Positions 8,028 to 49,867 are shown, numbered from the stretch's first letter. The stretch is 64,000 nucleotides of DNA from a virus (IMGVR_UViG_3300028845_000328), one strand, 5' to 3'. Notes: generated from the sequence alone by a model not told the origin. Made by a program: numbers and translations.

Positions 8028-8057
8028 GACGAAATTCATACCCGACAAACAAAGCAA
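8028..8057 (-). promoter_or_regulatory. Late-promoter-like motif TTGCTT-N17-TTTCGTC
   Basis: Matches the recurrent motif; 8 nt upstream of GTG 8019. Confidence 0.65.
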
Positions 8058-8070
8058 CTATTTTTTATTG

Positions 8071-8100
8071 TTGCAATCAAATACCGATAGCCATTTCGTC
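8071..8100 (+). promoter_or_regulatory. Late-promoter-like motif TTGCAA-N17-TTTCGTC
   Basis: Matches the recurrent motif; 10 nt upstream of ATG 8111; divergent from the 8028..8057 copy. Confidence 0.7.
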
Positions 8101-8110
8101 TATTCTCGAT

Positions 8111-9967
8111 ATGGGAAAAATTGCAGACGCTGTCACACGGGCGACGGGTGGATATGCTCCTACAGGGATATATTCACTTGAATTTCTTACAAAATCAGGA
8201 ATATTTTCAGGGATCCCGCTTGGTGAATATTTCTTTCTTCTCGGCCTGGAAAGAATGGAACAATCTTATAATTATAACATATCCGTTAAACCGACATACG
8301 GTGGGACAGCGATTGTAGATAACGGGAATTCAACCTCTGACATCAATTTATCAGGTCAATTCTGGGGTCATTATCAAGGTGCACCTGTCAGAAAACCAAT
8401 GGGTGGATTACTAGGGATTGCAGGGGCTGCTTTGGGAGAATTGGAAAAACTTAATCCGTTCAAAAAATCCGGATTTCTGGATTTCCTCGATTTAGTCTAT
8501 CTCATGCAAGAAATTCGGGACGATGAAAAGACATTTTCAAGAGTCCCCAGTTTCTCTCCATTCTACCCAACTGCGTTTGACATATACCTCAAAGGGAATT
8601 TCTACTCCCCTTTCAATTTTGAAGATGTTCAAATGGTTTTTCATGATTATGATAGAGACGCCCATTGGGAAGTTGTATTTTCTCCAAAAGGCGGGTTCAA
8701 AATATCTCAGTCAAAAGATGACCCATTCACATATTATTTTTCACTTAGCCTGATCGGGGTAAAGGATGTTTCATCAATAGCTCCATTCAGAAGAATGCCA
8801 CTACCAGACCCTAAATCAATGGTCAGAAATGTTCTAACTGGAATAAATGATCTTTTTTCGGATTTATCTGAACCGTTAAAATATCTAGCAAGCGTAGCTG
8901 ACCTATACCACGATATTGCAGGCTTGGCAGAGAATCTAAAAAAGGATTTGAGGGCGTTCGAAGCTACAAATAAGGAATCTATCCGGACGCTTCAAAAAGC
9001 AGGAGGCCCACTAAGGAAAAAGTGTAATCAATTTCAAGAATTGGTTACGCAACTATTTTTCGCTGGTCAGACTACCCCATCGCTTGCAGGAATAGACCAA
9101 CCCTCTAGTCCATTGACGACCTCATCGTCACCAGATGAAATTGCTGCAGGAGACAAAGGAGTTCCTACGAATCTTACCGACAATGTCCTCACCGATGCAA
9201 ATGGAAACGGGAATTTAATAGAAACAGATATTGCATTAGACCAAACAGTCCAGGATGTAACTTCTTTACAGATTGAACTCGAAAATCTAAATGCAGCTTT
9301 AATTCTTCTCGATAATGCAAATCTTTCCGCAAATTACTCATACGAAACTTTCTCTCCGGGTATGACTTTAGAAAATCTTGCAATTAAATATTATGGATCA
9401 ATAGGCGGAATAACTCAACTAATTCAGGATAACGGAAAATTATTTATAGGGAAGAAAATTGAGGATATTTATGGATTGCAAATCAGAGTCCCTTCCAAAA
9501 AATCTTATAATTCTATCGATACCGGGGTAATTACGGAACAACGGATTCTTAATGATTCGGATTCCAAGAAAACGCAAGAAATATTAGAATCATGGTTTTT
9601 CGGCGAAGATATTGCTTTCGATAGGGAACGCGATATTGAGGTTTCAAACGGGGACTTAGGTACTACCGTAGGTCTTGATTGCTTGGTAGACAACACTCTC
9701 GACAAAATGCGAATTATGCCCGGACAAATTCCTGCCCATCCGGATTTAGGAGCAATGGTCAGACCTGGCTCTGTCCCAGACAATTTTTTAAATCTTGTTA
9801 TTCCAAAGAAGATTCTAGCAAATATTGAAACTGATCTTGGAATACAGTCAGCAAGTATTATATCTCTTGAAATTAATGCTGATAAGGTTGAATATGTCGT
9901 TCAAATTACGCCGATAGGAGGGTTCAAATCATTCACATTGAGGCGTGTCAGGGGAATTGAAGAGTGA
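8111..9967 (+). CDS. Tail tube-initiator-like / LysM-like / gp25-like baseplate fusion protein
   Basis: LysM/gpX-like PGMTLENLAIKYYGS; C-terminal GDLGTTVGLDCL...AHPDLG...DLGIQS gp25-like segment. Confidence 0.6.
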   Translation: MGKIADAVTRATGGYAPTGIYSLEFLTKSGIFSGIPLGEYFFLLGLERMEQSYNYNISVKPTYGGTAIVDNGNSTSDINLSGQFWGHYQGAPVRKPMGGLLGIAGAALGELEKLNPFKKSGFLDFLDLVYLMQEIRDDEKTFSRVPSFSPFYPTAFDIYLKGNFYSPFNFEDVQMVFHDYDRDAHWEVVFSPKGGFKISQSKDDPFTYYFSLSLIGVKDVSSIAPFRRMPLPDPKSMVRNVLTGINDLFSDLSEPLKYLASVADLYHDIAGLAENLKKDLRAFEATNKESIRTLQKAGGPLRKKCNQFQELVTQLFFAGQTTPSLAGIDQPSSPLTTSSSPDEIAAGDKGVPTNLTDNVLTDANGNGNLIETDIALDQTVQDVTSLQIELENLNAALILLDNANLSANYSYETFSPGMTLENLAIKYYGSIGGITQLIQDNGKLFIGKKIEDIYGLQIRVPSKKSYNSIDTGVITEQRILNDSDSKKTQEILESWFFGEDIAFDRERDIEVSNGDLGTTVGLDCLVDNTLDKMRIMPGQIPAHPDLGAMVRPGSVPDNFLNLVIPKKILANIETDLGIQSASIISLEINADKVEYVVQITPIGGFKSFTLRRVRGIEE

Positions 9968-12544: not shown

Positions 12545-12551
12545 AGATTGT

Positions 12552-12582
12552 GACTGTATTCATGCTTTATTCGGGCAATCAA
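12552..12582 (-). promoter_or_regulatory. Degenerate promoter TTGATT-N18-TACAGTC ahead of the spike gene
   Basis: 7 nt upstream of an SD-less ATG at 12544; only a partial match to the late motif and could be sigma70-type. Confidence 0.35.
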
Positions 12583-12608
12583 GCAAAATTCTGTTTGTAC
12601 TTTTAATA

Positions 12609-12637: not shown

Positions 12638-12655
12638 AGAAGTTGAGACGATTAT

Positions 12656-16573: not shown

Positions 16574-18502
16574 TTATTTAGATTTAATTCCAAATTTTTC
16601 TTTCATACTTTTATATTCCCCGTTCAACCACTTCAAAGCACCCAAAAATTCTTTTGCTATCGCCTGCTGTTGCGCAAACGCATCCCGAAAAACATCAAGT
16701 GTCGCCGCTGCTGTATCAGTTGCATTTTGTGTTCCGCGATAGCTTTGACCACTAACGCTTTCAACTTTGTTAGAAGCCGAATCCGCTCCGGTAGCTTTTT
16801 TGTTTATCTGTTCGTTAATTTCCCAAATATTTTTCCCGGTTTTAGCCCTCTCGTTAGCTTCGGTCGCTGTAGATATTCCCAATTGTTTTTCGAGAATGCC
16901 TCTAGTTTCAGGGTCAAGGTCTTTCATCAAATCTTTCATGAAGCCCATATTTGCTTTACTCGTTATCCCTTCTTCTGCACCAGCCATAGCGCCTAAAAGA
17001 CTTTTTCCCGAATTCAAATGTCCTGCCATAGCGATTGAGTTCATGAGGCTGCCTGATTTTTTGAATCCCTGATCAATACCCGAATATACAGAACTCAGTC
17101 TGGCATCCCTGACACCAGTCATTGCAAGACCGCCAAGCACGTTCGATACATCGGATGTTTTCTGAATTCCCATTCCGGATGTGTATGCGTTTTCGGAGAG
17201 TCCGGAAACAGTCTGAAAAAACTCGGCCTGTCGTAGACCGGAAAATCCTGAATGAATTGCATCTGACATAATTTTTTTCATGTCATCTTTATTTCCACTG
17301 AAATTTCCATACTTTTCCATTTTGGCAAAAAGTTCAGCTCCTTGAGTCCCGCCAATTCCTTGGGATAAACCGAATTTCATACCTCGCGTAACGCTATTAT
17401 CCTTATTATATATGTAACGCTGCTGTTCATCCTCCTCCCATTTTTTCCATTTCATTTTTCCATCTTCATTTAGGAATTGGATTTCCCCTTTTTTGTGCAG
17501 ATATGTTTGTGTTGGGTCTTTTTTTAGTATTGAATTATAAACATCTGCGTCACCGCCTATAATTCTAGAACGGGATATTCCAATTTTAGCCAGCTCTGCA
17601 TTTGAAACTAAACTACCACCACCGGAAATATATTTGCCATAAACATCAAGAGTTGAATCCTGAGACTGCATAGATTGCTGGTGCATCCCAGCCATTGATG
17701 AAACCATTGATAGATATGCTCCAGCAGCAACACCTAATCCCAGTGGGATAGCATTTGCAGCGTTTCCAATTTTAGTTAACATTCCACTTTTTCCAGATTC
17801 TGGGTTAATATTAGTCTGTATCGGATTTGTAGGCATTGCTGGGGACCCTGTCAATTTCCGGATGGTTTCCTCTGAAGCCGGACGTAGCGGAGACATCCCA
17901 GGAATACCTGAGTGTCCGGGAAAGCCGGGAATCAGTGGAGAGCTGCCACGTCCTGGCGAACCAGGCATACCACCCTGAAACCCCGGAAATCCTCCCATAC
18001 CCGGCATCCCGGGAATACCTGAGATTTTACCAAACGTCGCGCTTTTGAAAATCGCATTTGCAAATGTTACACCTTTTTTACCGATAGTACCTACACCATC
18101 AATGTGCGTACCCTTGAACTTATCAGCGTCGGCTTTCATCGACTTCTGGATCATTTGCATAATTTCTTTCGGTGGAGCTTCAGCTTTTTGCTGTTTCTTG
18201 TATGCCTTTGTAAAGCCATCGCTAACTTTCTTGAAAGATTCGATTTTCCTTGTAACCACACCGGAAAATTCTCCGGACTTTAACTCAGCCGCGTCCTGCT
18301 TAAGCTGCCCTCCTATTGATTGTCCAGTCTGGTTGCCTTCGCTGATAGCCTGTGTCGCACTTCGTTCATCCCTTCTTAGGATTGAGTCTTTCGGTGGTTT
18401 TCTGCCACTGTGTTGCTCCATAGCAAACCGTCTTTTCATCTCATCGCTCATAAGAGCATACAACCTGTCTGCTGATAATTTAACCGATTTGTCTATGGCC
18501 AT
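16574..18502 (-). CDS. Tape measure protein
   Basis: Follows tube and chaperone genes; Gly/Ala/Met-rich helical composition. Confidence 0.75.
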   Translation of the reverse strand: MAIDKSVKLSADRLYALMSDEMKRRFAMEQHSGRKPPKDSILRRDERSATQAISEGNQTGQSIGGQLKQDAAELKSGEFSGVVTRKIESFKKVSDGFTKAYKKQQKAEAPPKEIMQMIQKSMKADADKFKGTHIDGVGTIGKKGVTFANAIFKSATFGKISGIPGMPGMGGFPGFQGGMPGSPGRGSSPLIPGFPGHSGIPGMSPLRPASEETIRKLTGSPAMPTNPIQTNINPESGKSGMLTKIGNAANAIPLGLGVAAGAYLSMVSSMAGMHQQSMQSQDSTLDVYGKYISGGGSLVSNAELAKIGISRSRIIGGDADVYNSILKKDPTQTYLHKKGEIQFLNEDGKMKWKKWEEDEQQRYIYNKDNSVTRGMKFGLSQGIGGTQGAELFAKMEKYGNFSGNKDDMKKIMSDAIHSGFSGLRQAEFFQTVSGLSENAYTSGMGIQKTSDVSNVLGGLAMTGVRDARLSSVYSGIDQGFKKSGSLMNSIAMAGHLNSGKSLLGAMAGAEEGITSKANMGFMKDLMKDLDPETRGILEKQLGISTATEANERAKTGKNIWEINEQINKKATGADSASNKVESVSGQSYRGTQNATDTAAATLDVFRDAFAQQQAIAKEFLGALKWLNGEYKSMKEKFGIKSK

Positions 18503-19645: not shown

Positions 19646-21430
19646 TTACGCCTTGCCCTGCAAAGGATAAAGGCTTAAAATATAAAAGATGAAATTGATC
19701 GGCAATACGACATTCCCTTGCAAATCAGTAAATGACCATGTGTCACCATCAATCCGGATTCCGATTTCTTCCTTGAAAGCTTTTATACCAAGCTCTGCGG
19801 ATCCCATGAGAAAGCCTTCTTCAACAAATGTCTGGAGTGAACGCTCCACGTATCCGATCACATCGGATACCCGAACACCCTGAACAAGTGCTTGATCGTC
19901 GACCGGAGCTCGTCCAGTGAACCGGCTATTGAATCCTTCCCGAAGTCGTCTTACCATCGTTAAGGCAACAGCGACAGATGATTTCTCATTAAGTACGATA
20001 TTGTCCTTTAGTTCAGTTGTTACCGACCTCTCGATTATCCACGCTAGATTTGATGGGTCCTGACGAATTACAAGACCACCGTCACGAATACATTGGTCGC
20101 CAATAAGCCCATGAAGGTTTTCCATCGAACGAAGGATATTCAGTTGCTTCCACGTAGGAGAATGTCTCGGAGAATTTGAGGCAGAGATCGCATTGTCAAT
20201 CACTGACAACATGAATCCGGGATAGGTTTTTTTATTTCCGTCAAGTCCAAAGAACTCAAACTTTTCAATCCCATAGTTCATCCAATAAACGCCCATTGTT
20301 CTAGCTTCTGAACGTCTTTCGTCAACTGTCTGAACAAGATCGCCACCACAACCACAAATAGTTTCTTTCTGGCCGTCTGGAGAAATCATGTCGTATCCGG
20401 CTGTTTTCCAGGCCACTTTGTCTGAAAGAGTAGATGTGAGGAGGTTCCTGTATAGTCCGGAAACCTTTTTACTGAAAGTGATTGCATCTTTTACTGCGGT
20501 GCCACTGGGGGTTCCGGTTACGCCACCTTGCGTTAGAAAAATTGGACTGGTTGTTCCAGCAAGTGCCTTCCTTGTAGCTCCAACTGAAATTTCAGCGAGT
20601 CCTGAATTCAAGAGAAAGATTTCCTCTTCATACAAGTCTGCATAGATTGTGGCGGCAGTTGTTTTTACAGAGATATTATCTGCTGCTTTGATATGGTCAA
20701 GTTTTCCACAAGCAAATTCCGGAGCGTCAATGAGATTTGCTACATATCCTGTCTTGGAATTGATAAAATCGACGGCCTCTCCTATAGTCGGATAGTCTGC
20801 ATAAAGGACGTCGAGACTCGTTGAACCATCAGTAGGAGGAGTTCCAGAAAGAGTCACGTTGATTTTAGTTGCATCAATTGTGATCTTTGCCACTGCCCCG
20901 TCACCGGTATATGTAATATCAAATACTTTCCGTTCAAGTTTTGGAGATGTTTGACTACCGGAAGCATCACCGATCTCAATCGTTTTCGAAGCCGAATTCT
21001 TCTTTACTCTTACTTTTTTCCCGTTTGGGCCGGGTATCGGATAAGAAATCCGATGAGTTTCTCCAGTTTCAAGAGATAAAAAATCAGAATAGGCTTTCGT
21101 ATTCGGACAAATATTCAAAATCTTGAATAGCTGCGGGCCACCAGCAAAATCGTCTTCGCTGGATGGAGAATCTGCTAAATAAATAGCCTCAAGTAGCTCC
21201 CCGCCACCGAGAACTTTCTTGGCATCTTCGAAATTCGTGAATAGCATATAGCGTTCATCATCAGTAAGAGTAGCATCATTACAATTAACGCCATTGTTTG
21301 CTTTCCCTATAATGACCTGAGTGAATTCATCTTGTGAAACCCCTTGACTTACGCTTGGTGCGCGAAACTTTCCTCTTGCCCCAGGCCCCACATACGATCG
21401 GCCTTCGAATACTTTTCCTTTTACGCCCAT
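19646..21430 (-). CDS. Contractile tail sheath protein (Twort/K-like)
   Basis: N-terminal FEGRSYVGPG, GGGELLEAI and C-terminal sheath pattern (LRRLREGFNSRFTG-like, INFI). Confidence 0.9.
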   Translation of the reverse strand: MGVKGKVFEGRSYVGPGARGKFRAPSVSQGVSQDEFTQVIIGKANNGVNCNDATLTDDERYMLFTNFEDAKKVLGGGELLEAIYLADSPSSEDDFAGGPQLFKILNICPNTKAYSDFLSLETGETHRISYPIPGPNGKKVRVKKNSASKTIEIGDASGSQTSPKLERKVFDITYTGDGAVAKITIDATKINVTLSGTPPTDGSTSLDVLYADYPTIGEAVDFINSKTGYVANLIDAPEFACGKLDHIKAADNISVKTTAATIYADLYEEEIFLLNSGLAEISVGATRKALAGTTSPIFLTQGGVTGTPSGTAVKDAITFSKKVSGLYRNLLTSTLSDKVAWKTAGYDMISPDGQKETICGCGGDLVQTVDERRSEARTMGVYWMNYGIEKFEFFGLDGNKKTYPGFMLSVIDNAISASNSPRHSPTWKQLNILRSMENLHGLIGDQCIRDGGLVIRQDPSNLAWIIERSVTTELKDNIVLNEKSSVAVALTMVRRLREGFNSRFTGRAPVDDQALVQGVRVSDVIGYVERSLQTFVEEGFLMGSAELGIKAFKEEIGIRIDGDTWSFTDLQGNVVLPINFIFYILSLYPLQGKA

Positions 21431-21747: not shown

Positions 21748-21777
21748 GACGAAAAACATAGGCTGAAAAAAATGCAA
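21748..21777 (-). promoter_or_regulatory. Late-promoter-like motif TTGCAT-N17-TTTCGTC
   Basis: Matches the recurrent motif; heads the tail operon. Confidence 0.7.
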
Positions 21778-26135: not shown

Positions 26136-26165
26136 GACGGAAATAGGAAATGTTTACAAAGTCAA
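26136..26165 (-). promoter_or_regulatory. Late-promoter-like motif TTGACT-N17-TTCCGTC
   Basis: 9 nt upstream of an SD-less ATG at 26126. Confidence 0.65.
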
Positions 26166-33966: not shown

Positions 33967-33997
33967 GACGAACGACATGACCTATATTTTATTGCAA
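33967..33997 (-). promoter_or_regulatory. Late-promoter-like motif TTGCAA-N18-GTTCGTC
   Basis: Near-match heading the protease-scaffold-MCP operon. Confidence 0.55.
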
Positions 33998-34007: not shown

Positions 34008-34037
34008 TTGACATAATTATTTTTTTATGGTTTCGTC
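34008..34037 (+). promoter_or_regulatory. Late-promoter-like motif TTGACA-N17-TTTCGTC
   Basis: 9 nt upstream of GTG 34047; divergent from 33967..33997. Confidence 0.7.
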
Positions 34038-34046: not shown

Positions 34047-34385
34047 GTGGGCAATACTCCGATACAAATACAGGATTTGGATAGCATAGATAGAGAGATT
34101 TTTAGTTATAATGTCTCTCAGGCAGAGTTTTTTATGATTCATGCAACTATAGATAGGATCGTAGAACTATCCCAATCAAATAAACTAATGGTAACTCCGT
34201 CACAGATCAGAACTTTAAAAATTATCAGAAAAAAACCTACTTACCTAACAATATCTCATAGAAATTCAATCATTGCGATCTTGAATTCAGTGATACTCCG
34301 AAATAGAGAAAAACGAGGGCAATTGTATGAGGCTTTATCCTATAAATCGAAAGCAATTATTCCGAGAAAGAAACAATCTTCGTGA
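34047..34385 (+). CDS. Hypothetical protein
   Basis: Track ORF directly after a promoter motif. Confidence 0.55.
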   Translation: MGNTPIQIQDLDSIDREIFSYNVSQAEFFMIHATIDRIVELSQSNKLMVTPSQIRTLKIIRKKPTYLTISHRNSIIAILNSVILRNREKRGQLYEALSYKSKAIIPRKKQSS

Positions 34386-34509
34386 AAAATTTTTACAAGC
34401 TTACCAGCTTTTAGACACTAACGAAAAATCCGCAGTCAAAGCTCTAAAAAAACTTGGGTTTAAAGTTGAGTGCTGGGAATTACTGGAAGATAAATGGGTT
34501 CTAAATTAG
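34327..34509 (+). CDS. Hypothetical protein
   Basis: Track ORF overlapping the previous gene. Confidence 0.4.
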   Translation: MRLYPINRKQLFRERNNLREKFLQAYQLLDTNEKSAVKALKKLGFKVECWELLEDKWVLN

Positions 34510-34568
34510 TATTCTCGGTTGATCAATTGGTCAGACGAGAATACTAACTATAAATAAGTTTTTGTGAA

Positions 34569-34823
34569 CTACAGCCTCTTTATGTCAATTGCTCTTATCT
34601 GATCAACGCCCTTTTTAGGATTAAATGAAGTTATTGTTTTGAAAGTGACGCGAATACCTTCTTTAATATTTTTCTGATGTATTGAGGAGTCTTTTCCGAA
34701 AAAGAAATAGTCCACTTGATCCTGATCGTTCGTGATGAAACCATAACCACCCTTTTTCCCGGGCTCGGCATTATGGTCATACTGAAAGTATTTTTTAATT
34801 GTTCCAGTTAAATAATTACTCAT
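34569..34823 (-). CDS. Cold-shock-domain (OB-fold) nucleic-acid-binding protein
   Basis: GTIKKYF...GYGFIT...DYFFF (RNP1/RNP2-like), EGIRVTF, AIDIKRL. Confidence 0.75.
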   Translation of the reverse strand: MSNYLTGTIKKYFQYDHNAEPGKKGGYGFITNDQDQVDYFFFGKDSSIHQKNIKEGIRVTFKTITSFNPKKGVDQIRAIDIKRL

Positions 34824-35416
34824 TTTGATTTTCTTTCCTTTAAATTTTTTATATCAACAACTTTATTTGAAAAAATAAGTTCTCTATGGTGATGTAATAT
34901 TGATTCTTCTGAATTTCCAAATGAAATTAATTTTCCAATTGAATTGAATCCCTTATTGAAGAAAAACATCGCAACGCCTCGATTCCATGAACCGTACGAG
35001 TAAACTTCTACAATAGGAGGATGGTTGGATATGATATGGATACTCAATGCTGCAAACGACTGAATAAATTGTGACAAATGGAAGAAATTAGCATACATTA
35101 CAAAAAAAACAAACCCAAACAAAAACCATGAATACACCCATTCACTATTGTAACAATATATGGACAAAGCGGAGAGGATGATTATTTTCGCAAAGAACTG
35201 AATGAATCCGTTTATCATAAATCGATTTAACAGAATAGAAAATCTTTCCTTATATCCACCCAGTCTAAAAAAAAACATCACGGTTTTTTCGTGCCATCGA
35301 TTCATGTGTTTGTTGTAAACATTCCGAATCAAACTTAATTTCTCGAAATGGTTTTTGATTATTTGCTCCCTTACTCTTTTCTTTTCAAAATTTGTTGGAC
35401 TGTATTTTTTTGACAT
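34820..35416 (-). CDS. Membrane protein
   Basis: Two central TM segments; start re-called at MSKKY with a GGAG SD. Confidence 0.55.
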   Translation of the reverse strand: MSKKYSPTNFEKKRVREQIIKNHFEKLSLIRNVYNKHMNRWHEKTVMFFFRLGGYKERFSILLNRFMINGFIQFFAKIIILSALSIYCYNSEWVYSWFLFGFVFFVMYANFFHLSQFIQSFAALSIHIISNHPPIVEVYSYGSWNRGVAMFFFNKGFNSIGKLISFGNSEESILHHHRELIFSNKVVDIKNLKERKSK

Positions 35417-35432
35417 TTTCTCTCCTTTAATT

Positions 35433-36386
35433 TTATAACATGGCCATACGGATTGGATTGTATCTTGAGCTGTGATTTTCATACCATTGTTTCAACTTAT
35501 TTTCTAATTCCAAAATCCTGGCTCCATACATTGCACTGGTTGCTGATTGAGTTGTCGAAATTGATTCAGATAGCACACCTACACCGATTGAGAACGATGC
35601 TACGCCGGCTGCTCTACCATCCCCGAAAACAGACATTACCTTAATCGCGACAATCATACCTATCACCTGCCTAAGGTCTGCGGGGACTCTGTCAGCAGAA
35701 TCATAACCGGCGATATAGTCTATATAATGTGTTGCCGGTAATTTTGTAGCCGGATAACCACCGAATACTCTAGTAGAGCGCATGGCAACATTTTTGTTGT
35801 AGGAAAACCCAAGGCCTAATGCACCAACATTTCTTAGTTCAGCAGTTTCGTATTTGATCTTTGCTCGGCTGGTCATATCCATAACAATACCGTTTGGTTC
35901 GCCATTTTCGTCTTGTGCAACCGGATTCACGAAATCCCAGTTCAATAGCCGTATTAATGGCCTGTGTCTTAGCTCAATGTAGAAGTTATTCCCTAAATCT
36001 TGATTCTCATAGTCATGCGCATCATACCATTCCGCGTGTGGCTCAATATATCTAGGTATATTCCCCTTCGGACGGTATCTGTAAACAGTAGGGTAGATTT
36101 CGTGTTGTAGCTCTCTTGATAATGCCTTTGTGGTTTCGTGAACCCAACCGCGAAGGTTTTCATCTGTTATATATGACCCGTCTACAGTTACAAGCCGTCC
36201 ATTTCCGTTCATCCATGAATACCGAATTTCATCTGGAGTTACTATTTCTCCCCAACCGATTCCTGGGCTTGGAATTTGCAATGATGGGTCAAGCGGATTC
36301 CTTCCAACATATAACCGTTCCAGTAAATTTCTATTTGCTTCACGATCCGGATTATCGAACAAGAATCCTTTCTTAATCTTAGCCAT
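35433..36386 (-). CDS. Head-tail connector / head completion protein
   Basis: YIAGYDSADRVPADLRQVIG...SIGVGVLSES adaptor-like pattern. Confidence 0.7.
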   Translation of the reverse strand: MAKIKKGFLFDNPDREANRNLLERLYVGRNPLDPSLQIPSPGIGWGEIVTPDEIRYSWMNGNGRLVTVDGSYITDENLRGWVHETTKALSRELQHEIYPTVYRYRPKGNIPRYIEPHAEWYDAHDYENQDLGNNFYIELRHRPLIRLLNWDFVNPVAQDENGEPNGIVMDMTSRAKIKYETAELRNVGALGLGFSYNKNVAMRSTRVFGGYPATKLPATHYIDYIAGYDSADRVPADLRQVIGMIVAIKVMSVFGDGRAAGVASFSIGVGVLSESISTTQSATSAMYGARILELENKLKQWYENHSSRYNPIRMAML

Positions 36387-39300
36387 TTGAGTCCGCCTTC
36401 TTCGATTTCAGAAAATTGAACATGATTATTTTGGCTCTCGCTCCTGATTTTTTAATTTCCTTTACGCCAAGCATTTCAAGAACTTCGGCAATATGATTTG
36501 TTACAATTTCACTTAGGGAAAACTTTACTCTCTTCGCCTCCGTTTCCTTCAATTCTTTTTTAAATTTCTCGATATATTCATCTTTCTTCGTAGTTTGTAA
36601 TTCTCGCGATTGCTCTAATAGCCTATCAGCTTCATCTTGAGATTTTTTGACAAATGCGCGTGCAGTCTCTACCGCATTAAAGGATTTCCTCTCCAATTGC
36701 TGAGTTTTGATACTTATTTTTGTTTTTAGAGCAGAAATATCTTTCTTAATTTTGTCAATTTCTGCTTTATTCTCTTTCAGGAAATCAGCTTCATCGTCAT
36801 AACGCCACCAACTATTTCCTACTTCCTTTCCAGATTCTTCATATTTATCAGGGTTCTTTATGTATTCCATGAATAAAGGGACTTCATCCAGTGATTCCTT
36901 TAGTGAAGTGCTTCTACTATCGAGAAGGTTTTCAGCTTCATCTAGATCATCTAAAATTCCTTGAACAGCAAACGCCCTTGACTGAGCATCCTTTGCTTGT
37001 GCTCTGATCCGCCCGCTTTCTTCCTGCAATACCAATTTTGCCTTTCTCTCAGGGTCTTTAATAATATCATATTTCAACTCGTCTGGGTTTATTTCAGATA
37101 CATCGATTGCAGGGGATCCAGTGTTTTTAAAAATATCATTAATCCGAGATATTTTTTCTCCCTGTTTTTGGTATAATTTTGAATCAATCGAATCCTCCAT
37201 GAGAACATCTACCCACATTGTTTTCTTGAGCTTATTTCCTGGTCTGTGAGCGCGTCCGCGTTTTTGAACTTCGGTTGTTGGATTCCAGTCGATCGAAGTA
37301 TTATAGGCTATCCCGGTATATTTATTGAGGGAGACACCTTCCTTGATTACATCAGTTCCAAGAATAATCCTGCATTTGCCATCCGGATTATTGAAATCTT
37401 TTGTGATTTCTGTAAACCTGGAGAGACCTTTCGCTTTCATTGAAGAATCCCTTGCAGGTGTAGTTTTGGTTTTTGTATCCATTATTTCGATAGCATCACC
37501 AGGAATTCCTTGGTCAACCAGATATTGTTTTATTTTCTGTATATGCTCCACACCCTTCGGCATGAACATGATTTGACCTGGGATAGGTTCGCCTGGTCTT
37601 AGCTCCCGATGCTTATAGTATAATCCTGCAATCGAATCTGCAATAAATTTTAGTTTTGGGGAACGCTCAACTACATCGGCAGTTCCAAGATGGTTAATAT
37701 CAGAGAATTTTTTCCAAATATCTGCTTTTCCGGGTTTCACCAATGCAGGAGATATTCCCATCATTTGTTGCGTACCAATTGAAACTAAAGGCGCTGCACC
37801 GGATGGTTTTCCAGAAGGGTCTTTTTCATCATACATTTCTTCAAGACGATCTCTCATAAGTTTCTGTTCTTCTGATAGAGGCAATACGACAGCCTTCATT
37901 TTTAATTCTGGGCGCTCTACTCCATTTTCATCCCCTTGCTGAAAATCGAAATACTCCCTTACCAAAGATTGGAAGGCGTGACCATTTTTGAAATTCCGGA
38001 CAACTTGCTTTTGCTTTATTTCCCCATTCCCCTCAATTGTATTCTCCCATGTAGTTTCAACAAATGTAGCAATGAAATCCCTGATATTGTAAATCCCCAT
38101 GTCTCGAAGACGTTTTTTTGCTACGATGGAAAGAAGAGAATATACCTGTAATGGATTATTTGTAAATGGTGTAGCTGTTAGTAAAAGTACATTTCTGTCT
38201 TGATTTTCTTTAAGTATGTGTTGAGCTGCAAGATATAGTTTTATCCCCCTTGCGGATGGGCTTCCACTTGTGATCCCACTAAACTCATTTGCCTTTACGG
38301 AGGCTTCTTCTTCATCAGAACTAAGCTTATTGACTCCTCCCAATTGGTCTTTCTTCTTTATATCAACAAAGATATTGTTAAAATTGTGAGCTTCGTCCAC
38401 TGTTATCATGTCGAATCCAGCGTCATCAAATTTCAGAGCAGCTTCAGTTCCAATAGTTGCCACGCCAACCAATTCTTGTATCTGTTCGTCGTCCTGGGCT
38501 TTACCGCGCTTCCCTTTTTCATTGTCTGGGTTGACTATCTGATCTTTTAGGTCATTTGTTAACTCATTGAATCGATTTTCAGAAAAACCAAATCTCTGGA
38601 ACGCATCATAAGACATTATCGTTACAGTGCCATCATCAACTTCGAATTTTCCAGAGTTAGATTTCAATTGGTCATTGAGTTCTGGAGTCCCGATCATTTG
38701 TGATTTTACATTCGGGAAGCGTTCCTTGAATTCAAGTGCCCATTTTTGGAGAACAGATGTAGGTACCACTATCAGAGGTTTTTTAGCTTTACCTGTTTGG
38801 ATAGAAGACACGTTGGCCATCATACCAGTCCATGTTTTCCCGAGTCCGACTTCATGGGTCGCGCATCCAACACCTTTTGTCATATATTCCCCGACAAATC
38901 GCATCTGAATACCTCTGGGGTCTTGATCCTTATCCTTATATTTTCGATTCATCCCTTCCAATACAACTGGTATTTTATTCGAATCAATCTTGGCTACTGA
39001 ATTGAACTGGTCATTCCATTTCTCTGAGAGTTCTTTTTGGTCTTCGTCGGAAAGAATTTCATTTATAAATTGTTTGAAAAGTTTCTCAGCCTGAATCTTG
39101 CGTTCTTTCCTTCTTCTCTGATTCTCCTCAGCGTCGCGACCTGTGACCTTCTCGCCCAATGTGTAGGATTTAATATCCATTGCCGAGCAATCAGTCCCCT
39201 GGAAATATTCCCTTGGCAATCCACCTTCGTAATGAGACAGACCTCTTGAATATCCATAGTCCCGATAGACAGGAGTTCCCAAAACATAATCGAAGAATTT

Positions 39301-42180
39301 TTCAGTTATTTTTTTTCCATCTTGAAAAACCAAAGATTGAACAAATGGTTCAAGTGGAGACAAAACAAGTTTTGACATGTCTATCTTCTTTGGAGTAGCC
39401 GATTCGAGAGCTTTTTTTTGCCTATGATATTGCTCTTCTCCATACTTGTTGATAATGCTATCCTTTGATTTTTCAAGCGCAAATAGCTTGTCTTTGATAT
39501 TCCCGGATTGGTAGATGTATGCCGGCACGAAATCAAACTCTCCATTTCTTCCTTCTACCAGAGCCATCCGATCCTTATCAAAAGGGAGATTTTTTATTCT
39601 ACCGATTGGATCCATGTTTCTGACAATCTCAATATCTTTTTCATCGAAAGACTTATTGAATTTCTTATTAAATTCAGCCTGTGTGTAGAGATTTCTAGGG
39701 TCTATTATTGATGAAGAGTCTTGGATTTTTTCCTTCTTAATTGCCTTAGTCGATTTCTCAGCATTTTTGTTCCCCTTAAGACCTTCTGAAATGGAATTCT
39801 TTGTTTCCTGACTCATCGGTTCTTTAGGTTTTGGCAATTCTAAAGCTATAAAATCTTCAACGTTTCCTTTGATAAATGTTTCTTCCCTTCCAAATCGATT
39901 AATCCTTTTTTCTTCAGAACCAATTATATGCTCCGGATTTTCTTGAAAATATTTCCCTCCGAAAACCAACTTATTATCCTTCTTATTAGAACTGTTTTTC
40001 CTTAAGATAATAATATCGGTTCCAATCCCAGTATTTCCGAACGAACCTTCAGGGAGACGATACGATTCCAAAAGCTCAGCCTTCTCGAAGATTTCCTTTT
40101 TCCAGTTTTCCTCTCCTGCATTCATGAAACTGGACGGTACAACGTAGGCTAAAACTCCACCTTCTTCAAGAGTATCAAGGCCCCTAGAAATGAAATAGTG
40201 TTCATATCTTTTATACCCCTTTCCTTCAATCGCTTTATATCTTCCAGTCATCGCTCCATAAGGAGGGTTTCCAGCAACTAGCCCGTATTTTTTACCAGAA
40301 TATTTATTCCCTAGTGACCGATTTTTCTTATCGATAAACATGGTTTCAAAGGCATTATCTGAAACATTTGCATCTGGGTGAAGAATTCTTGCAATCTGAT
40401 AGGCAGTGTTATCATCAGGATTGTATTCAAGCATATCCCAGCGGTAATTCGTATTTTCGGCAAATCGTCCTATTCCTGCGGCTGGCTCAAGAGCATCCAC
40501 GTCTGGTTTAACATAACGAGATACTATTTCCTGCATTTTTGAAATTACCTTCCTCGGAGTAAAGAACTGGTATAACATCCCGCGAGTAGCTTCCGCATCT
40601 TTATTTGTAGTCTGACCGCCAGAACCCTCATACCTCCGAAGGATTTCCTTTTGTTCATCAGTAATTTGGTATGGAGGCGTAGAAGATAAAATTTGCTTGC
40701 ATTTTTCGTTGATTTCGGCCTGTTTTTTTTGCGACCACTTTTGTTTCACACCAGAAACAGCGTCAATTGCAGAATCGTTTATTTTTTCAGGCAAAGAACG
40801 GTCATCTTTTTTAGCGTTCTGATTTCCTTTCATTGCCTCAGATCGAGACTCAGGATGTGGTACGAGGTAATTATTGTTGTTGACAGAATTCCACCATTGG
40901 TATAAATTACTTTTTAGGGGAGAAAGTTTCCGGCCTTGATTAGTCGGGGGAGCGCTCCCCTTATTTATTATCTCTGATTCAACGAACTCATTGTCATAAA
41001 AGTAATCACCATTATTATTTTCACGGATGATTATTCTGATAAATTCATCTTTTCCATTAATTCTTACCTTTGAACTATAATTATGATAAGCAATAATATT
41101 TTTGTCTTCATTTTTCATATTGGATTCACTCCACAAATAAGTCCCTTTTTGCAATAGTTCTGGTAATTGCGGGATGACACTTATTGTTCGGTTATCAGCA
41201 CTGTGAAAGAATATTTCCTTGAATCCCTTAGTTGAAAATTTGACTTTCCTGCCATCTTTCGTTATAGGAGTTTCGTCTCTTATTTTATCGAATTCATCTT
41301 TTGATATTTTCAGCCTGTCCTTAACATTCAAATTCGGAGGCAACCAACTGGAATCTATGATAACCGGTTCTTGACCAAGTAGTTCTTTCTTTTTTTCTTC
41401 TTTATCTTCTGGTTGCTGTAAGTAATAATTGGATTTTCCAAGCCTTATTCGTCCGTCGCCTCCAGGTTTCCCAAATCCGATTCCAGAATCCCTGCGTATG
41501 CTATCAGGTTTTCCAGCGTTACCGTTTTGTTCTCCATTTTGCAGATTCTTTCCAGTTGCGTAGATACCCACTCCTGACTGTAGTTTTTGAGTTCCAGAAA
41601 CTGGCTCTCCTGTATTTCCTTGTATAGCTGGTCCGATAATTTCTGATCCATTATTTTGCCTCTTCCCATAAATATGATAGAGCTTTCGGAAAATTGACGA
41701 TTTGTAACCACTTTCGGAAGATGTTTTCGATTCTGTTTTTGCTATAACAGCAGTGGCGTAATTTCCGGTCGTTTCGTCCATTTCTTTTGCAACCGGAGTA
41801 TTTTTGGCAACATTTGCAAGCTTTTCCTCTTCAGCAAACCTTGCATCGTATTTTTCCTTGAACTCAAAGTATTTTGTAAAATGTCTTGTCCATTCAGGCA
41901 AGCTGATTCCATCTGTACCGATATTTTTTTTCTTGTACTCATATATGGCTACATGCTCCGGACTACTCGATTCTCCTATGTTGAAATATTGAAGTAGCTT
42001 ACTAATTAATGTTTGGTGGTTTGATTGATGAGTCGCTGGGTGCTCGCTATCATATTCTGTCTTTGTATACCAGTATTTCCAACGGTTATTTTTCCATTCC
42101 CGTTTGTAATATTTGGCTCCCTGCCTTTGTTCGCCTTTGCGACTCTTCAAAAATTCTTTTATCGTCTCATTTGCATTCAT
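36379..42180 (-). CDS. DarB-like polyvalent protein: tag - LPD3-like - adenine MTase - SNF2 helicase
   Basis: LEPAAGIGRF, GNPPYG, HEVGLGKT, DEAH, EVQKRGRAHR; upstream VKFSTKGFKE...GDYFYD LPD3-like domain. Confidence 0.85.
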   Translation of the reverse strand: MNANETIKEFLKSRKGEQRQGAKYYKREWKNNRWKYWYTKTEYDSEHPATHQSNHQTLISKLLQYFNIGESSSPEHVAIYEYKKKNIGTDGISLPEWTRHFTKYFEFKEKYDARFAEEEKLANVAKNTPVAKEMDETTGNYATAVIAKTESKTSSESGYKSSIFRKLYHIYGKRQNNGSEIIGPAIQGNTGEPVSGTQKLQSGVGIYATGKNLQNGEQNGNAGKPDSIRRDSGIGFGKPGGDGRIRLGKSNYYLQQPEDKEEKKKELLGQEPVIIDSSWLPPNLNVKDRLKISKDEFDKIRDETPITKDGRKVKFSTKGFKEIFFHSADNRTISVIPQLPELLQKGTYLWSESNMKNEDKNIIAYHNYSSKVRINGKDEFIRIIIRENNNGDYFYDNEFVESEIINKGSAPPTNQGRKLSPLKSNLYQWWNSVNNNNYLVPHPESRSEAMKGNQNAKKDDRSLPEKINDSAIDAVSGVKQKWSQKKQAEINEKCKQILSSTPPYQITDEQKEILRRYEGSGGQTTNKDAEATRGMLYQFFTPRKVISKMQEIVSRYVKPDVDALEPAAGIGRFAENTNYRWDMLEYNPDDNTAYQIARILHPDANVSDNAFETMFIDKKNRSLGNKYSGKKYGLVAGNPPYGAMTGRYKAIEGKGYKRYEHYFISRGLDTLEEGGVLAYVVPSSFMNAGEENWKKEIFEKAELLESYRLPEGSFGNTGIGTDIIILRKNSSNKKDNKLVFGGKYFQENPEHIIGSEEKRINRFGREETFIKGNVEDFIALELPKPKEPMSQETKNSISEGLKGNKNAEKSTKAIKKEKIQDSSSIIDPRNLYTQAEFNKKFNKSFDEKDIEIVRNMDPIGRIKNLPFDKDRMALVEGRNGEFDFVPAYIYQSGNIKDKLFALEKSKDSIINKYGEEQYHRQKKALESATPKKIDMSKLVLSPLEPFVQSLVFQDGKKITEKFFDYVLGTPVYRDYGYSRGLSHYEGGLPREYFQGTDCSAMDIKSYTLGEKVTGRDAEENQRRRKERKIQAEKLFKQFINEILSDEDQKELSEKWNDQFNSVAKIDSNKIPVVLEGMNRKYKDKDQDPRGIQMRFVGEYMTKGVGCATHEVGLGKTWTGMMANVSSIQTGKAKKPLIVVPTSVLQKWALEFKERFPNVKSQMIGTPELNDQLKSNSGKFEVDDGTVTIMSYDAFQRFGFSENRFNELTNDLKDQIVNPDNEKGKRGKAQDDEQIQELVGVATIGTEAALKFDDAGFDMITVDEAHNFNNIFVDIKKKDQLGGVNKLSSDEEEASVKANEFSGITSGSPSARGIKLYLAAQHILKENQDRNVLLLTATPFTNNPLQVYSLLSIVAKKRLRDMGIYNIRDFIATFVETTWENTIEGNGEIKQKQVVRNFKNGHAFQSLVREYFDFQQGDENGVERPELKMKAVVLPLSEEQKLMRDRLEEMYDEKDPSGKPSGAAPLVSIGTQQMMGISPALVKPGKADIWKKFSDINHLGTADVVERSPKLKFIADSIAGLYYKHRELRPGEPIPGQIMFMPKGVEHIQKIKQYLVDQGIPGDAIEIMDTKTKTTPARDSSMKAKGLSRFTEITKDFNNPDGKCRIILGTDVIKEGVSLNKYTGIAYNTSIDWNPTTEVQKRGRAHRPGNKLKKTMWVDVLMEDSIDSKLYQKQGEKISRINDIFKNTGSPAIDVSEINPDELKYDIIKDPERKAKLVLQEESGRIRAQAKDAQSRAFAVQGILDDLDEAENLLDSRSTSLKESLDEVPLFMEYIKNPDKYEESGKEVGNSWWRYDDEADFLKENKAEIDKIKKDISALKTKISIKTQQLERKSFNAVETARAFVKKSQDEADRLLEQSRELQTTKKDEYIEKFKKELKETEAKRVKFSLSEIVTNHIAEVLEMLGVKEIKKSGARAKIIMFNFLKSKKADSNG

Positions 42181-42188: not shown

Positions 42189-42218
42189 GACATATTTAAG
42201 AATTATTCGTATTTGCAA
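42189..42218 (-). promoter_or_regulatory. Degenerate late-promoter-like motif TTGCAA-N17-ATATGTC
   Basis: 8 nt upstream of an SD-less ATG at 42180. Confidence 0.5.
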
Positions 42219-45972: not shown

Positions 45973-46451
45973 TCCCTGAATTCCCCCAATTTTATTTTAT
46001 TTAGAAACCATTCGATATAAAGTGCTAAATCCTGATCAGATAGTTGAGCAGCATCATAATAAGGAATAGTTTCACCGTCTTGTTTCTTGACGTAAAGAAG
46101 AACGGCGCTTACTAGCTGGTATTTTTTTCTGTAAATATCGCCATAAATTTCCTCAATCATACTTTCCGGTGAACGAAAATAATCTTTTAATTTCCGGAAC
46201 GGATTTAATATAACTGAATGTGGAGGTCTTTTGGCTTTATGCAATTTAGTTGCATTTTTTTTTGCTTCTTCGATTAAGAACTCCAGTCTATCAATCAAAT
46301 CTATAAAAAGACACTTCCAATTCCAGTTTCTCCAATATTCATTATCATTGGGACTACCAGGAGAAATATTTGAAATTTTTACGGAATCCCTTCCTTTGCT
46401 TATTTCATTTCTTACCCCTTCAAATAGTTCATTTATTTCAAATTCAGTCAT
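45969..46451 (-). CDS. Hypothetical protein
   Basis: Track ORF, translationally coupled (TAATG). Confidence 0.55.
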   Translation of the reverse strand: MTEFEINELFEGVRNEISKGRDSVKISNISPGSPNDNEYWRNWNWKCLFIDLIDRLEFLIEEAKKNATKLHKAKRPPHSVILNPFRKLKDYFRSPESMIEEIYGDIYRKKYQLVSAVLLYVKKQDGETIPYYDAAQLSDQDLALYIEWFLNKIKLGEFRE

Positions 46452-47458
46452 TACAATCCTCTAATTCCACGCTGAAATACAAGATACTCAATCCCGGATT
46501 CATGTGCAGCCATTATCACACCAGCGTTATATGCCATAGCGGATTCAGTGAATGCAAATCTTTTAAAATTTCTATTCAACCTCATTGTTAATAGTTCTGA
46601 TTCCTTCCCATTAAGTATCTGTAAATACTCATCTTCAGACATTTTACCTTTTTCTACAAGCGAATAAAGGTCAGGGAAGGCCATTTCTGACTGCAATTCT
46701 TCTACCGACTTATTGTCTCTTATCGAATCAGCTATCATGTCACCCCACATTTTTCGCAGGTAAATGTAAGGCTTTCCTCCTCTCTTGGGTTGGCCGTTCT
46801 CATAAATAATATTTCCATTTTCATCTCGGTCATATACTGCTATCCAATCTGCTGAATTAGATTTTGACCATGTTTCTGCAAGATTTCGAATCCTGTTTTT
46901 GTCGAGCTTGTCCTCCATCAATTCCGGATCATCCAGGCCAACTCCAAGCTTAAACGTAAAAGCCCTATCGTAATCTTCAATTCCCATTGAATTCACTGTT
47001 TCCACTGGCAGTTTTAGCGCACCCGTCAGATAACCAGACAAATATCCCAGAAAAGTTCCAGTGTCTCCTATTTCTTTATAAACTGGATTCCAGTCATTTT
47101 CCAGATACCTAAATAGCCAGTCATCATATTCCTCTGAATCAAATGTTTTGATTTTGTTTTCAGGAGGTATGTCGCCTGAACCAGAATTATCTATTTGCAA
47201 ATCAACTTTTGGCCTACCTTCCGTACGCGGTTGTTTATCAAATAGCTTTTGTAAAAATTTAGGAAGGTGTCTCTTCCCCCAACTAAAGAGACCTTTTCTG
47301 ATGTATAAATCAGATGCCTTGATACTGATTTTATCAGGGCCAAGCGCCTGATATTCAATCCATTTCAAGTAGTCGGCAACCAATAGCTGGAATTGCCGAC
47401 CTGCTCTCGATTTTAAGAACGGACTTTCCTTAGAGTCCCAGGGATTGGAATAGATCAT
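46451..47458 (-). CDS. MuF-like minor head protein lacking the C-terminal Cys/His module
   Basis: RNFKRFAFTESAMAYNAG resembles the MuF RIAxTE...N.G motif; ends about 20 aa later; near the portal. Confidence 0.6.
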   Translation of the reverse strand: MIYSNPWDSKESPFLKSRAGRQFQLLVADYLKWIEYQALGPDKISIKASDLYIRKGLFSWGKRHLPKFLQKLFDKQPRTEGRPKVDLQIDNSGSGDIPPENKIKTFDSEEYDDWLFRYLENDWNPVYKEIGDTGTFLGYLSGYLTGALKLPVETVNSMGIEDYDRAFTFKLGVGLDDPELMEDKLDKNRIRNLAETWSKSNSADWIAVYDRDENGNIIYENGQPKRGGKPYIYLRKMWGDMIADSIRDNKSVEELQSEMAFPDLYSLVEKGKMSEDEYLQILNGKESELLTMRLNRNFKRFAFTESAMAYNAGVIMAAHESGIEYLVFQRGIRGL

Positions 47459-48056: not shown

Positions 48057-48081
48057 ATTTTCTTACCTTCCCTTTTTAAAA

Positions 48082-49830
48082 TTATTGATTTTTGTGTTCC
48101 GCAATCGCTCTTGCCGCGATAGATTGCTCTGGGTCATCGTGGACTGAAGATGTTTCGTTTTCTCCACCAATAAAATCATCATCTCCCCACGGCAACTGTT
48201 GCTCATTCCCAGAATTCAATTCGTCTGGCAGTTGTTGGGTTTGCTGAGTATTCTGATCGACCGTGAAAACCTTTGATATTTCCTGCGATACATATTGATT
48301 TCCTACCAACATGCCAAGTTTTCTGAACTTTTTGGCTTCATCCTCGGTAATGATACCATTCCTGAGTGCTTCATTCGCCTGGTCTTGCATTGTTGGCAAA
48401 TCATTTTCTTTTAGAATTGAATCAATATTCCTATAAGTTCGGAATTGTTTTTCATGAAGGTCGGCTTTTTTTGATTCATCGTTTGTTTTTACTCCTACAA
48501 AAACGATTTTTGAAGGTAACTCCATCTCTGGGTCTATAATTTCATTTAAACAATCCTCATGAAATGTCATTATAGACCCGTGGATTCGATCACGAGAGAA
48601 GTTTTGCCTTCCATCCATTGAAGGCTCCGATAAAGAGCTGGATTGATTCAGACGTAAACCAAGTTGAGCTGGGTCCATTCCATGTCGAGCAATGATCAAA
48701 GAAGCTGTCATTTGCAGTAATTTATCAAATGCAAAATCATCTTCGACATCTAAATTATGAACCTGCATATCCCCAACACCGAACATCATCGGCAACCTGA
48801 AATTTGGTCTAGGGCCGTAAAATTGATTTTCCCATTGAAGTTCGAGGCGCTCTTGATCCGCTTTCGTGAGCTGGTTCTTGGTTGTTATTATTGCCCTTGG
48901 TGGATTTCGGTGATTGAAACGGTCTGCATTCCATCGCAAGGAGTTTACCAATGCCATTATCTCAGTAATGCACGATTCAATCGGAGAATATCCAAAACCA
49001 CGCATCCGAACATCCGAAAGATTATTCTTATGACGATAGATAATTCTTCCTGCTTCGAAAACTTCAGTTACCGAATTTTGAATCATTTGCACGTGAGTGA
49101 TTCTTTTGTCTCCACGGTACCCTTTTCTTGGATCGACTCTATAGATACTCCCTGGGTCGATATACCGAATATCGCAAAGTTTTCCAACCCTGTTATAGGT
49201 TTTTAGATAGGCTATCGCATCAATGGCAAGTGTGTCACGAGTAGCCATTTCAAGCACTTCTCCCATCCTGTCACGTTCTCTCCAGTCATGTGTAGATTTG
49301 TCTCCCATAATCAGCAGGATATTTGCGATATTCTCAAACTCATTCATTTGTTCTTTTGTTGGTCTCTCATCTTTCCGCTTTAGTTTTATTTCAAAGCCTG
49401 GGTCTTCCTGATATTTCGCATACATAGAGCAATCGTCTGAAACGATCTGGTGAATTGCCCCAATTAGAGAGGAAGAGTAGGAAATATTCCGCAAATCATC
49501 CGTGGTTATCCGGAAAATTGGTCTGAGTTGGATTCCTTGATTATACATAATGAGCGATTCGTCATTGTATAACGGATTTTTCCTATCCTTAGCTGATTTC
49601 AGGATTTCGTACATTTGGTTATTCAGGTCAATCGCCTGACTAAAAGCTTGCCTTGCTGGTTCATAAAATGCTGATTTCCGGAATAATTCTATCGGCATGG
49701 TTTCCGGGTCACCGGATTGTGTTTTTTCGATTGGAGTTGCATTTCCGCTTACAAGCTTTTCTCGGAATTCTTTAGGTATTCGGTTTAAGCGATTTTTTTC
49801 GTAGTTTGCACCACGCGGTCTTCCAGCCAT
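48082..49830 (-). CDS. Portal protein
   Basis: IRYIDPGSI, GFGYSPIE, FDKLLQMTASLIIARHGMDPAQLG; follows terL. Confidence 0.9.
   Translation of the reverse strand: MAGRPRGANYEKNRLNRIPKEFREKLVSGNATPIEKTQSGDPETMPIELFRKSAFYEPARQAFSQAIDLNNQMYEILKSAKDRKNPLYNDESLIMYNQGIQLRPIFRITTDDLRNISYSSSLIGAIHQIVSDDCSMYAKYQEDPGFEIKLKRKDERPTKEQMNEFENIANILLIMGDKSTHDWRERDRMGEVLEMATRDTLAIDAIAYLKTYNRVGKLCDIRYIDPGSIYRVDPRKGYRGDKRITHVQMIQNSVTEVFEAGRIIYRHKNNLSDVRMRGFGYSPIESCITEIMALVNSLRWNADRFNHRNPPRAIITTKNQLTKADQERLELQWENQFYGPRPNFRLPMMFGVGDMQVHNLDVEDDFAFDKLLQMTASLIIARHGMDPAQLGLRLNQSSSLSEPSMDGRQNFSRDRIHGSIMTFHEDCLNEIIDPEMELPSKIVFVGVKTNDESKKADLHEKQFRTYRNIDSILKENDLPTMQDQANEALRNGIITEDEAKKFRKLGMLVGNQYVSQEISKVFTVDQNTQQTQQLPDELNSGNEQQLPWGDDDFIGGENETSSVHDDPEQSIAARAIAEHKNQ
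49687..49717. repeat. 31-bp direct repeat, copy 1 (in the portal 5' end)
   Basis: ttctatcgg[c/t]atggtttccgggtcaccggat, 30/31 identical to 50006..50036; palindromic core TCCGG-N4-CCGGA. Confidence 0.85.
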
Positions 49831-49837
49831 GCAAAGT

Positions 49838-49867
49838 GACGAAAATAACAGAATACTTAATTTGCAA
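49838..49867 (-). promoter_or_regulatory. Late-promoter-like motif TTGCAA-N17-TTTCGTC
   Basis: 7 nt upstream of the SD-less portal ATG. Confidence 0.7.

Follow-up and report, generated by a model that had tools for sequence, protein, structure and literature searches.

We analysed a 64,000-nucleotide (nt) stretch of viral DNA (IMGVR_UViG_3300028845_000328; hereafter the window), in which a two-block motif, TTG followed at a fixed spacing by TTTCGTC or a variant of it, recurs upstream of late genes. The DNA comes from bioreactor metagenomes. Among public runs, no RNA data set is listed as containing it, and two wastewater RNA-Seq records have only small shares of it, as contigs. Its G+C content is 38.8%. 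Family searches with the window genes identified baseplate J, a tube-initiator/baseplate protein, sheath, portal and a T7-type large terminase. Three further genes encode large polyvalent proteins: a methylase-helicase (1933 amino acids, aa), an InPase/Zeta-kinase protein (977 aa) and a PBECR3/ParB protein (913 aa). The portal protein (48082–49830, minus strand) shares 61% identity with the portal of Leptospira phage LE1, and its remaining good matches are all LE1-like Leptospira prophages. On sequence grounds, we assign the window to a myophage or prophage of the LE1 clade. A right-hand extension of ∼10 kb, a JGI contig, was found through a search for encoding contigs; exact-word searches of viral and metagenome contigs with the end of the window gave no match.

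A first-pass annotation of the window had listed eight copies of the motif. All eight were found at the positions listed, including those with the variants TTCCGTC, GTTCGTC (at a spacer of 18) and ATATGTC, and we add a ninth, degenerate copy (Table 1). The strict pattern TTG-N20-TTTCGTC has five matches in the window where 0.35 would be expected, and none of 100 dinucleotide shuffles of the sequence reached five. The TTTCGTC heptamer by itself is not enriched (17 occurrences against 12.9 expected); therefore, the signal lies in its pairing with TTG at a fixed spacing and in its position. All eight copies fall within the ∼4% of the window that is outside long open reading frames (ORFs), at structural genes and, as annotated, they point into late genes and twice form divergent pairs. 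In these back-to-back pairs (8028/8071 and 33967/34008), the two −35 blocks are separated by 13 and 10 nt, respectively. The genes that the copies face are given in Table 1; all copies head structural operons. With a weight matrix built from the relatives only, three window sites ranked top, yet shuffled sequence sometimes scored equally high. The significance of the motif thus rests on the strict pattern, its position and its orthology, and not on the matrix alone.

Table 1. Motif copies, a different signal, a conserved protein family and a recurrent palindrome; positions are those of the window unless another record is named
Feature	Position	Strand	Sequence	Context	Counterparts in relatives
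Site, strict	8028..8057	-	TTGCTT-N17-TTTCGTC	baseplate J, GTG at 8019, 8 nt past GTC	orthologous sites in LE1, C27, L073, L074, G002:C3
Site, strict	8071..8100	+	TTGCAA-N17-TTTCGTC	back-to-back with 8028..8057; 618-aa tube-initiator/baseplate gene, ATG at 8111, 10 nt past GTC	
Site, degenerate (added)	12552..12582	-	TTGATT-N18-TACAGTC-N7-ATG	243-aa gene, ATG at 12544	full sites at orthologues in LE1 (gp40), C27, L073, L074
Site, strict	21748..21777	-	TTGCAT-N17-TTTCGTC	small (90-aa) gene before the sheath, and sheath operon; leader 28 nt	orthologues in LE1 (gp29), C27, G002:C3 have ATG 7–10 nt past GTC
Site	26136..26165	-	TTGACT-N17-TTCCGTC	913-aa PBECR3/ParB polyvalent protein, ATG at 26126, 9 nt past GTC	orthologous site at LE1 gp26
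Site	33967..33997	-	TTGCAA-N18-GTTCGTC	head operon; leader ∼40 nt with GGGGGA ribosome-binding site; first gene 33926–33126, then protease/scaffold-like genes and major capsid gene	
Site, strict	34008..34037	+	TTGACA-N17-TTTCGTC	back-to-back with head-operon site; GTG of 112-aa helical protein, 9 nt past GTC	
Site, degenerate	42189..42218	-	TTGCAA-N17-ATATGTC	1933-aa methylase-helicase, ATG at 42180, 8 nt past GTC	full-consensus site at the same place in LE1 (orthologue gp15)
Site, strict	49838..49867	-	TTGCAA-N17-TTTCGTC	portal, ATG at 49830, 7 nt past GTC	
Different signal	52764..52792	-	TTGACA-N17-TGAAAT	small-terminase-like gene, GTG 6 nt on	TYGTC-type site in LE1, C27, G002:C3, unlike the window
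Helical protein family	34047-34385	+			
Helical protein family	L028:9678-10037				
Helical protein family	L082:4273-4614	-			
Helical protein family	LE1 (L001) 20743-21063	-			
Palindrome (10 bp)	49882-49891; 49948-49957; 18056-18065; 47193-47202		ATTTGCAAAT	four copies	

The window was compared with five relatives: LE1; a 72.8-kb plasmid-prophage replicon of Leptospira ainazelensis (G001:C27, hereafter C27); an 83-kb replicon of Leptospira sp. GIMC2001 (G002:C3); a 77.7-kb Logan contig (L073); and a contig of L. adleri (L074). C27 was found with an alignment of the window and LE1 portals, where single-portal scans of genomic and of viral contigs had found nothing. Sites of the TTTCGTC type are absent from LE1. 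The LE1 operon heads carry TTGcaa-N17-CCTTGTC followed by ACTTCCC-ATG, at gp08, gp10, gp15, gp19, gp26, gp29, gp40, gp43 and gp44, and ten such sites, of the form tTTTGTCC, occur in C27. L073, L074 and G002:C3 show the same architecture at two places, the baseplate pair and the gp40-like gene. The orthologous places that bear sites are the portal, the divergent pairs of the baseplate and head-operon genes, the gp40-like gene, the sheath operon and the gene of the giant protein.

The base preceding GTC varies between these sites (T, C or A). The window favours TCGTC, with CGTC in seven of the eight reported sites, while the relatives have TGTC and favour TTGTC; one phage, L073, has both TCGTC and TTGTC. 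Therefore, TTTCGTC is merely the preference of the phage in the window. The −10 word TTTCGT(C) put forward in the first-pass annotation holds as such a preference but not as a conserved word, the conserved core being T-Y-G-T-C with an invariant GTC. We also considered that TCGTC and TTGTC might co-vary with a cognate factor; this was dropped, as L073 has both variants and G002:C3 also has TAGTC.

For more distant LE1-like prophages, with portals of ∼30% identity (L. noguchii CZ214 and locus L076), the motif was absent at the corresponding places. Between the divergent baseplate genes of CZ214, a 27-bp palindrome (CCAATATCGGGAATTTCCCGATATTGG; L066:2279–2325) takes the place of the back-to-back TYGTC sites, which suggests that the same operons are under different control there. 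At L076:17950–18220 there are three 117-bp tandem repeats, each with TTGCAA-N18-TTT(T/C)GTC, in or beside a DnaD/HTH_36 replication-type gene. These repeats are iteron-like, and their likeness to the motif may be due to chance.

Alignment of 28 sites from the window, LE1 and C27 on the GTC revealed a common architecture: an A/T tract, a gap of 3–4 nt, TTGmhw, 17 nt (occasionally 18), yTTYGTC, 7–10 nt that are nearly purine-free, and an ATG or GTG start codon. Of these elements, TTG and GTC alone are invariant. TTG is found at 26 of the 28 sites as placed, and at all 28 if the spacer may be 1 nt longer; the downstream hexamer is TT(T/C)GTC or T(T/C)GTCn at every site. The sigma-70-like geometry described in the first-pass annotation was borne out, with a TTGACA-like −35 block and a 17-nt spacer; an A/T tract lies upstream. 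Its view that the −10 block is not of the housekeeping type also held: where TAnnnT would require A, at position 2, this block has T, and it also lacks the T at position 6, the last.

The motif is private to the phage. Within the L. ainazelensis genome (4.9 Mb), TTG-N22-TTGTCC has 61 matches, eight of which are on C27, a contig that makes up 1.5% of the genome, and the rate of chromosomal matches equals that of an off-spacing control. When a start codon was required 7–10 nt downstream, C27 held 8 of the 19 matches. For the complete GIMC2001 genome, 3 of 32 matches are on the 83-kb replicon, and none of the six chromosomal matches that come closest to the phage sites opens an ORF longer than 30 aa. 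The motif is therefore essentially confined to the phage replicon in these two host genomes.

Of the 27 aligned operon-head sites, 23 have 7–10 nt between the GTC and the start codon, as do six of the eight copies first listed for the window. None of six promoter-adjacent genes has a Shine–Dalgarno core, compared with 38 of 72 other genes. The positions of the start codons are conserved among orthologues, with exchanges between ATG and GTG, and the aligned portals show conservation beginning at residue 1. The head operon is consistently excepted: in all four genomes (the window, LE1 at gp19, C27 and G002:C3) it has a leader of 28–40 nt with a ribosome-binding site. The extracytoplasmic function (ECF, group 4) factor sigma-E of Escherichia coli has promoters with GTC in the −10 element, the C of this GTC being at −10. 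At a sigma-E-like distance from the GTC, position +1 would therefore fall at the start codon or no more than two bases from it and, since the intervening stretch is purine-free, the opening base of the start codon, A or G, would be the first at which initiation is favoured. Geometry, the missing Shine–Dalgarno cores and the purine-free stretch thus point to leaderless late mRNAs. Such mRNAs are common in Leptospira, ∼440 having been mapped in L. interrogans (PMC5243855).

We propose, with a probability of about 0.6, that the motif is the late promoter class of the LE1-clade Leptospira phages and that it is coupled to leaderless translation. A promoter-like role is strongly supported by the conservation of orthologous sites in six phage replicons, by their strict orientation towards the gene, by the sigma-70-like −35 block with its A/T tract and by the constant spacing from GTC to start codon. 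Bacterial RNA polymerase would be positioned by the A/T tract, an UP-like element upstream, and the −35 block TTGmhw would be recognised in much the way that region 4 of sigma recognises TTGACA. The −10-like yTTYGTC follows 17–18 bases further on, and its invariant GTC would be recognised by a factor that is not the housekeeping sigma. The next 7–10 bases, being almost free of purines, would force initiation onto the first base of the start codon, A or G, or 1–2 bases earlier, and in most late operons the mRNA would therefore be leaderless for its first gene. Exceptions would be the head operon and, in the window, the sheath operon, both of which would retain a leader with a ribosome-binding site.

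Several points weigh against this proposal. The public records of the window DNA are metagenome assemblies only. Two of the window sites use GTG starts, and GTG is a poor leaderless start in E. coli; in mycobacteria, leaderless GTG starts are reportedly functional. Pfam and PHROGs scans of ∼60 proteins from the window and the 10-kb extension found no sigma family, and six-frame searches of LE1, C27 and G002:C3 with Sigma70_r2 gave no match. Early regions across the clade share almost nothing; therefore, the candidates for a conserved phage factor would be limited to three families that are not sigma-like and to proteins of the structural module. Finally, unlike ECF promoters, the phage sites lack AAC in the −35 block and have a spacer that is 2–3 bp longer than the canonical one.

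The first-pass annotation had seen no obvious sigma gene in the window, and no sigma-70-family domain was found there. It had suggested searching the rest of the genome for a sigma or activator gene; no sigma-70-family domain was found in the adjoining 10 kb or in three complete relatives, which makes a sigma gene elsewhere in the genome less likely than it had assumed. The six-frame searches, with Sigma70_r2 and r4_2, covered LE1 and both host genomes, and the only hits on phage replicons were weak helix-turn-helix (HTH) matches in the CI repressor and in small-terminase-like proteins. There is no phage RNA polymerase among the proteins of the window, the large ones being the three polyvalent proteins named above, and no sigma/anti-sigma gene pair beside any copy of the motif. 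The gp19-like first gene of the head operon was considered as an autoregulated sigma factor and rejected, since the proteins that it resembles are accessory proteins of the capsid or tail. That the motif may be read by an alternative or phage-modified sigma factor, as originally suggested, is plausible.

Clustering of the proteins of four replicons left only two non-structural families common to all: a ParB-like protein and a Ner-like HTH protein. The ParB-like protein (window 52856–53743, minus strand) carries a CTP-type arginine box, GxRRxR, and is conserved in four clade replicons. Its gene lies directly upstream of the small-terminase-like gene in the window and in C27; in LE1 and GIMC2001 the two genes are kilobases apart, the ParB-like one being part of the plasmid maintenance region. 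It resembles the KorB/ParB clamps, and it may have a role in packaging or silencing. The Ner-like protein belongs to the immunity region. A third family emerged from synteny, a helical protein of ∼115 aa (112 aa in the window) that is always encoded divergently from the head operon behind a late-type site of its own and was seen only in records from Leptospira and Leptospiraceae. The LE1 homologue is unannotated (49% identity, E = 2.5e-30) and lies on the opposite strand to gp18 (21028–21219, plus strand), which it overlaps; gp18 may thus have been called on the wrong strand. The LE1 members of the three families are this unannotated gene, gp04 and an 85-aa Ner-like gene. A structural model of the 112-aa protein, of moderate confidence (predicted local distance difference test, pLDDT, 70; 83–90 in the core) is a helical bundle, with no Foldseek match at E ≤ 0.001 and VIA matches to generic helical bundles at Z ≤ 7.1.

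None of the three families shows any likeness to sigma factors. The reader could be a phage factor of a family that is not recognisable from sequence, either a sigma-like protein or a sigma remodeller, to which we would give clearly less than even odds. We hold a more specific version only tentatively: that the clade carries a specificity factor of a family as yet unrecognised by sequence and fold searches, with the 112-aa, ParB-like and Ner-like proteins as candidates, which would redirect RNA polymerase to TTG-N17-TYGTC and so make nearly the whole late programme leaderless.

A host alternative sigma factor, most probably from among the many ECF sigmas of Leptospira, might instead read the motif, with the phage activating it late, for example by removing an anti-sigma factor. 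The invariant GTC (CGTC in the window) resembles the ECF −10 element and the promoter of L. interrogans sigma-X, the motif is kept across phages that have unrelated early regions and different Leptospira species as hosts, and a phage sigma factor is not detectable. Against a host factor, no regulon is visible in the chromosome, where matches are at the off-spacing control rate. The cognate sigma of an ECF promoter is usually autoregulated; at 15 loci around sigma-family hits in L. ainazelensis, no convincing copy was found upstream of a sigma gene. A chromosomal match near a sigma gene, on C38, was discarded as it lies inside an upstream ORF and has a chance probability of ∼0.1. ECF promoters have a −35 element with AAC and a spacer of 14–17 nt, neither of which fits the phage sites, with TTGCAA, TTGACA or TTGATT in the first block and a spacer of ∼18 nt when measured as for sigma-X. 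The distant LE1-like prophages, also from Leptospira, do without the motif. Overall, we consider a host ECF sigma unlikely as the reader.

Less probable again is that the sigma-70 holoenzyme uses the −35 block and the A/T tract, and that a phage activator bound to the TYGTC block, or to the melted strand, takes the place of −10 recognition. The −35 block and the 17-nt spacer are indeed sigma-70-like, the A/T tract is at the position of a proximal UP subsite, and all clade members have the three small or DNA-binding families described above. Of these candidates, however, the 112-aa protein has only generic helical-bundle matches and the Ner-like protein is placed in the immunity region like a Cro analogue. 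We also know of no activator that substitutes for A−11/T−7 recognition in strand opening.

It is very improbable that the two blocks are operator half-sites through which a phage repressor or silencer keeps the late operons silent in lysogens, with other sequences as the actual promoters: TTGCAA is self-complementary, TGACA and TGTCA are reverse complements that give a partial dyad at some sites, and the conserved ParB/KorB-like CTP-type protein adjoins the terminase genes, but the dyad is not general (GAC is in the first block at only 7 of 28 sites), all sites face their gene with a fixed 7–10 nt from GTC to start codon, a separation of 24 bp would be unusual for half-sites, and the conservation profile, with TTG strongest and degenerate thereafter, is that of a −35 hexamer.

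Other features of the window were noted. The ATTTGCAAAT palindrome is present in four copies (Table 1), and a 9-mer of it has 10 strand-matches against 2.5 expected. Two copies are just upstream of the promoter-like site of the portal, the −35 block of which is TTGCAAAT; the palindrome may be a binding site for a regulator. A long inverted repeat at 34510–34568 lies between the convergent units 34047–34509 (plus strand) and 34569–42180 (minus strand), a position like that of a two-way terminator. A scan of 49.8–64 kb for sigma-70-type consensus sequences gave no more hits than in shuffled sequence, and therefore says nothing about early promoters.

Genes for DNA modification are abundant at 53875–58521, with Dam-like, N4/N6 and C5 methyltransferases and a further methyltransferase at 57928–58521. 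A protein with a dATP/dGTP diphosphohydrolase N-domain (57576–57926) is encoded within this cluster, and an N6 methylase domain is also present in the 1933-aa virion-type protein. The right-hand extension encodes two CI-like/Ner-like pairs, an anti-repressor, Bro-N, HicAB and exonuclease, followed by host-like YhhN and glutathione peroxidase genes. The pairs form two tandem immunity-like modules past the right end of the window (L067:1–4600), in each of which a CI-like HTH gene is divergent from a Ner-like gene. As no ParA or Rep was seen there, the clade member of the window may be integrated, unlike LE1, which is a plasmid prophage.

LE1 was the source of the first shuttle vector for Leptospira, a genus with few genetic tools and poorly defined promoters. 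Genome-wide mapping of start sites in Leptospira gave no general promoter consensus (PMC5243855). Among the searchable papers, which do not include the original LE1 genome paper, we found no description of a late-promoter motif of leptophages, and no alternative promoter classes of Leptospira beyond one ECF promoter and sigma-54 sites. A compact, phage-private promoter that is conserved over at least six replicons would give the leptophages their first defined transcription signal, and could serve as a tightly controlled expression tool. The motif would also give a handle on the factor that reads it, and its interest would be greater if a new kind of specificity factor does stand behind it.

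Among known promoter classes, sigma-70 promoters with an UP element share with the phage sites a TTGACA-like −35 (here TTGmhw), a spacer of 17 nt to the hexamer (17–18 nt to TTYGT(C)) and an A/T tract just upstream. They differ in the hexamer, which is TT(T/C)GTC in the phage, and the phage class is not enriched in the host chromosomes. ECF promoters likewise have two short blocks at a rigid spacing, a −10 element based on (C/T)GT(C/T) and a small private regulon, and the invariant GTC of the phage sites agrees with the CGT/GTC of the ECF −10. The only mapped Leptospira ECF promoter, that of L. interrogans sigma-X, is TG(A/G)CAC-N15/16-TCGTT (PMC7708080). The phage sites do not fit the sigma-54 pattern TGGCAC-N5-TTGCA, with GG at −24 and GC at −12: TTGCA is present, but the sequence 10–12 nt upstream is an A/T tract without GG, and many sites have TTGACT or TTGATT. 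Nor are they late promoters of the T4 type, which consist of a lone TATAAATA box with no −35, as the motif has two blocks and lacks TATAAATA. Promoters for a phage RNA polymerase (T7-like or N4/crAss-like) are not indicated either, there being no such gene and the 17-nt spacer being unconserved, unlike the contiguous conserved word of those promoters.

Late operons are served by phage sigma-like factors in several systems: Xpf of Bacillus subtilis PBSX, gp28 and gp33/34 of SPO1, and gp55 of T4. The LE1-clade phages resemble these in having a phage-private promoter word, unlike host promoters, at the heads of the structural operons. Those systems, in contrast, carry a recognisable sigma-family gene, T4 late promoters are without a −35, and none of them is linked to leaderless starts. 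Leaderless phage mRNA has a precedent in lambda cI transcribed from PRM. As in that transcript, and in the Leptospira leaderless mRNAs (PMC5243855), the start codon here lies at the expected start of transcription and is not preceded by a Shine–Dalgarno sequence. The difference is that, here, the arrangement and one specialised promoter type appear to be common to an entire temporal class of operons, a coupling of promoter and leaderless translation that would be unusual.

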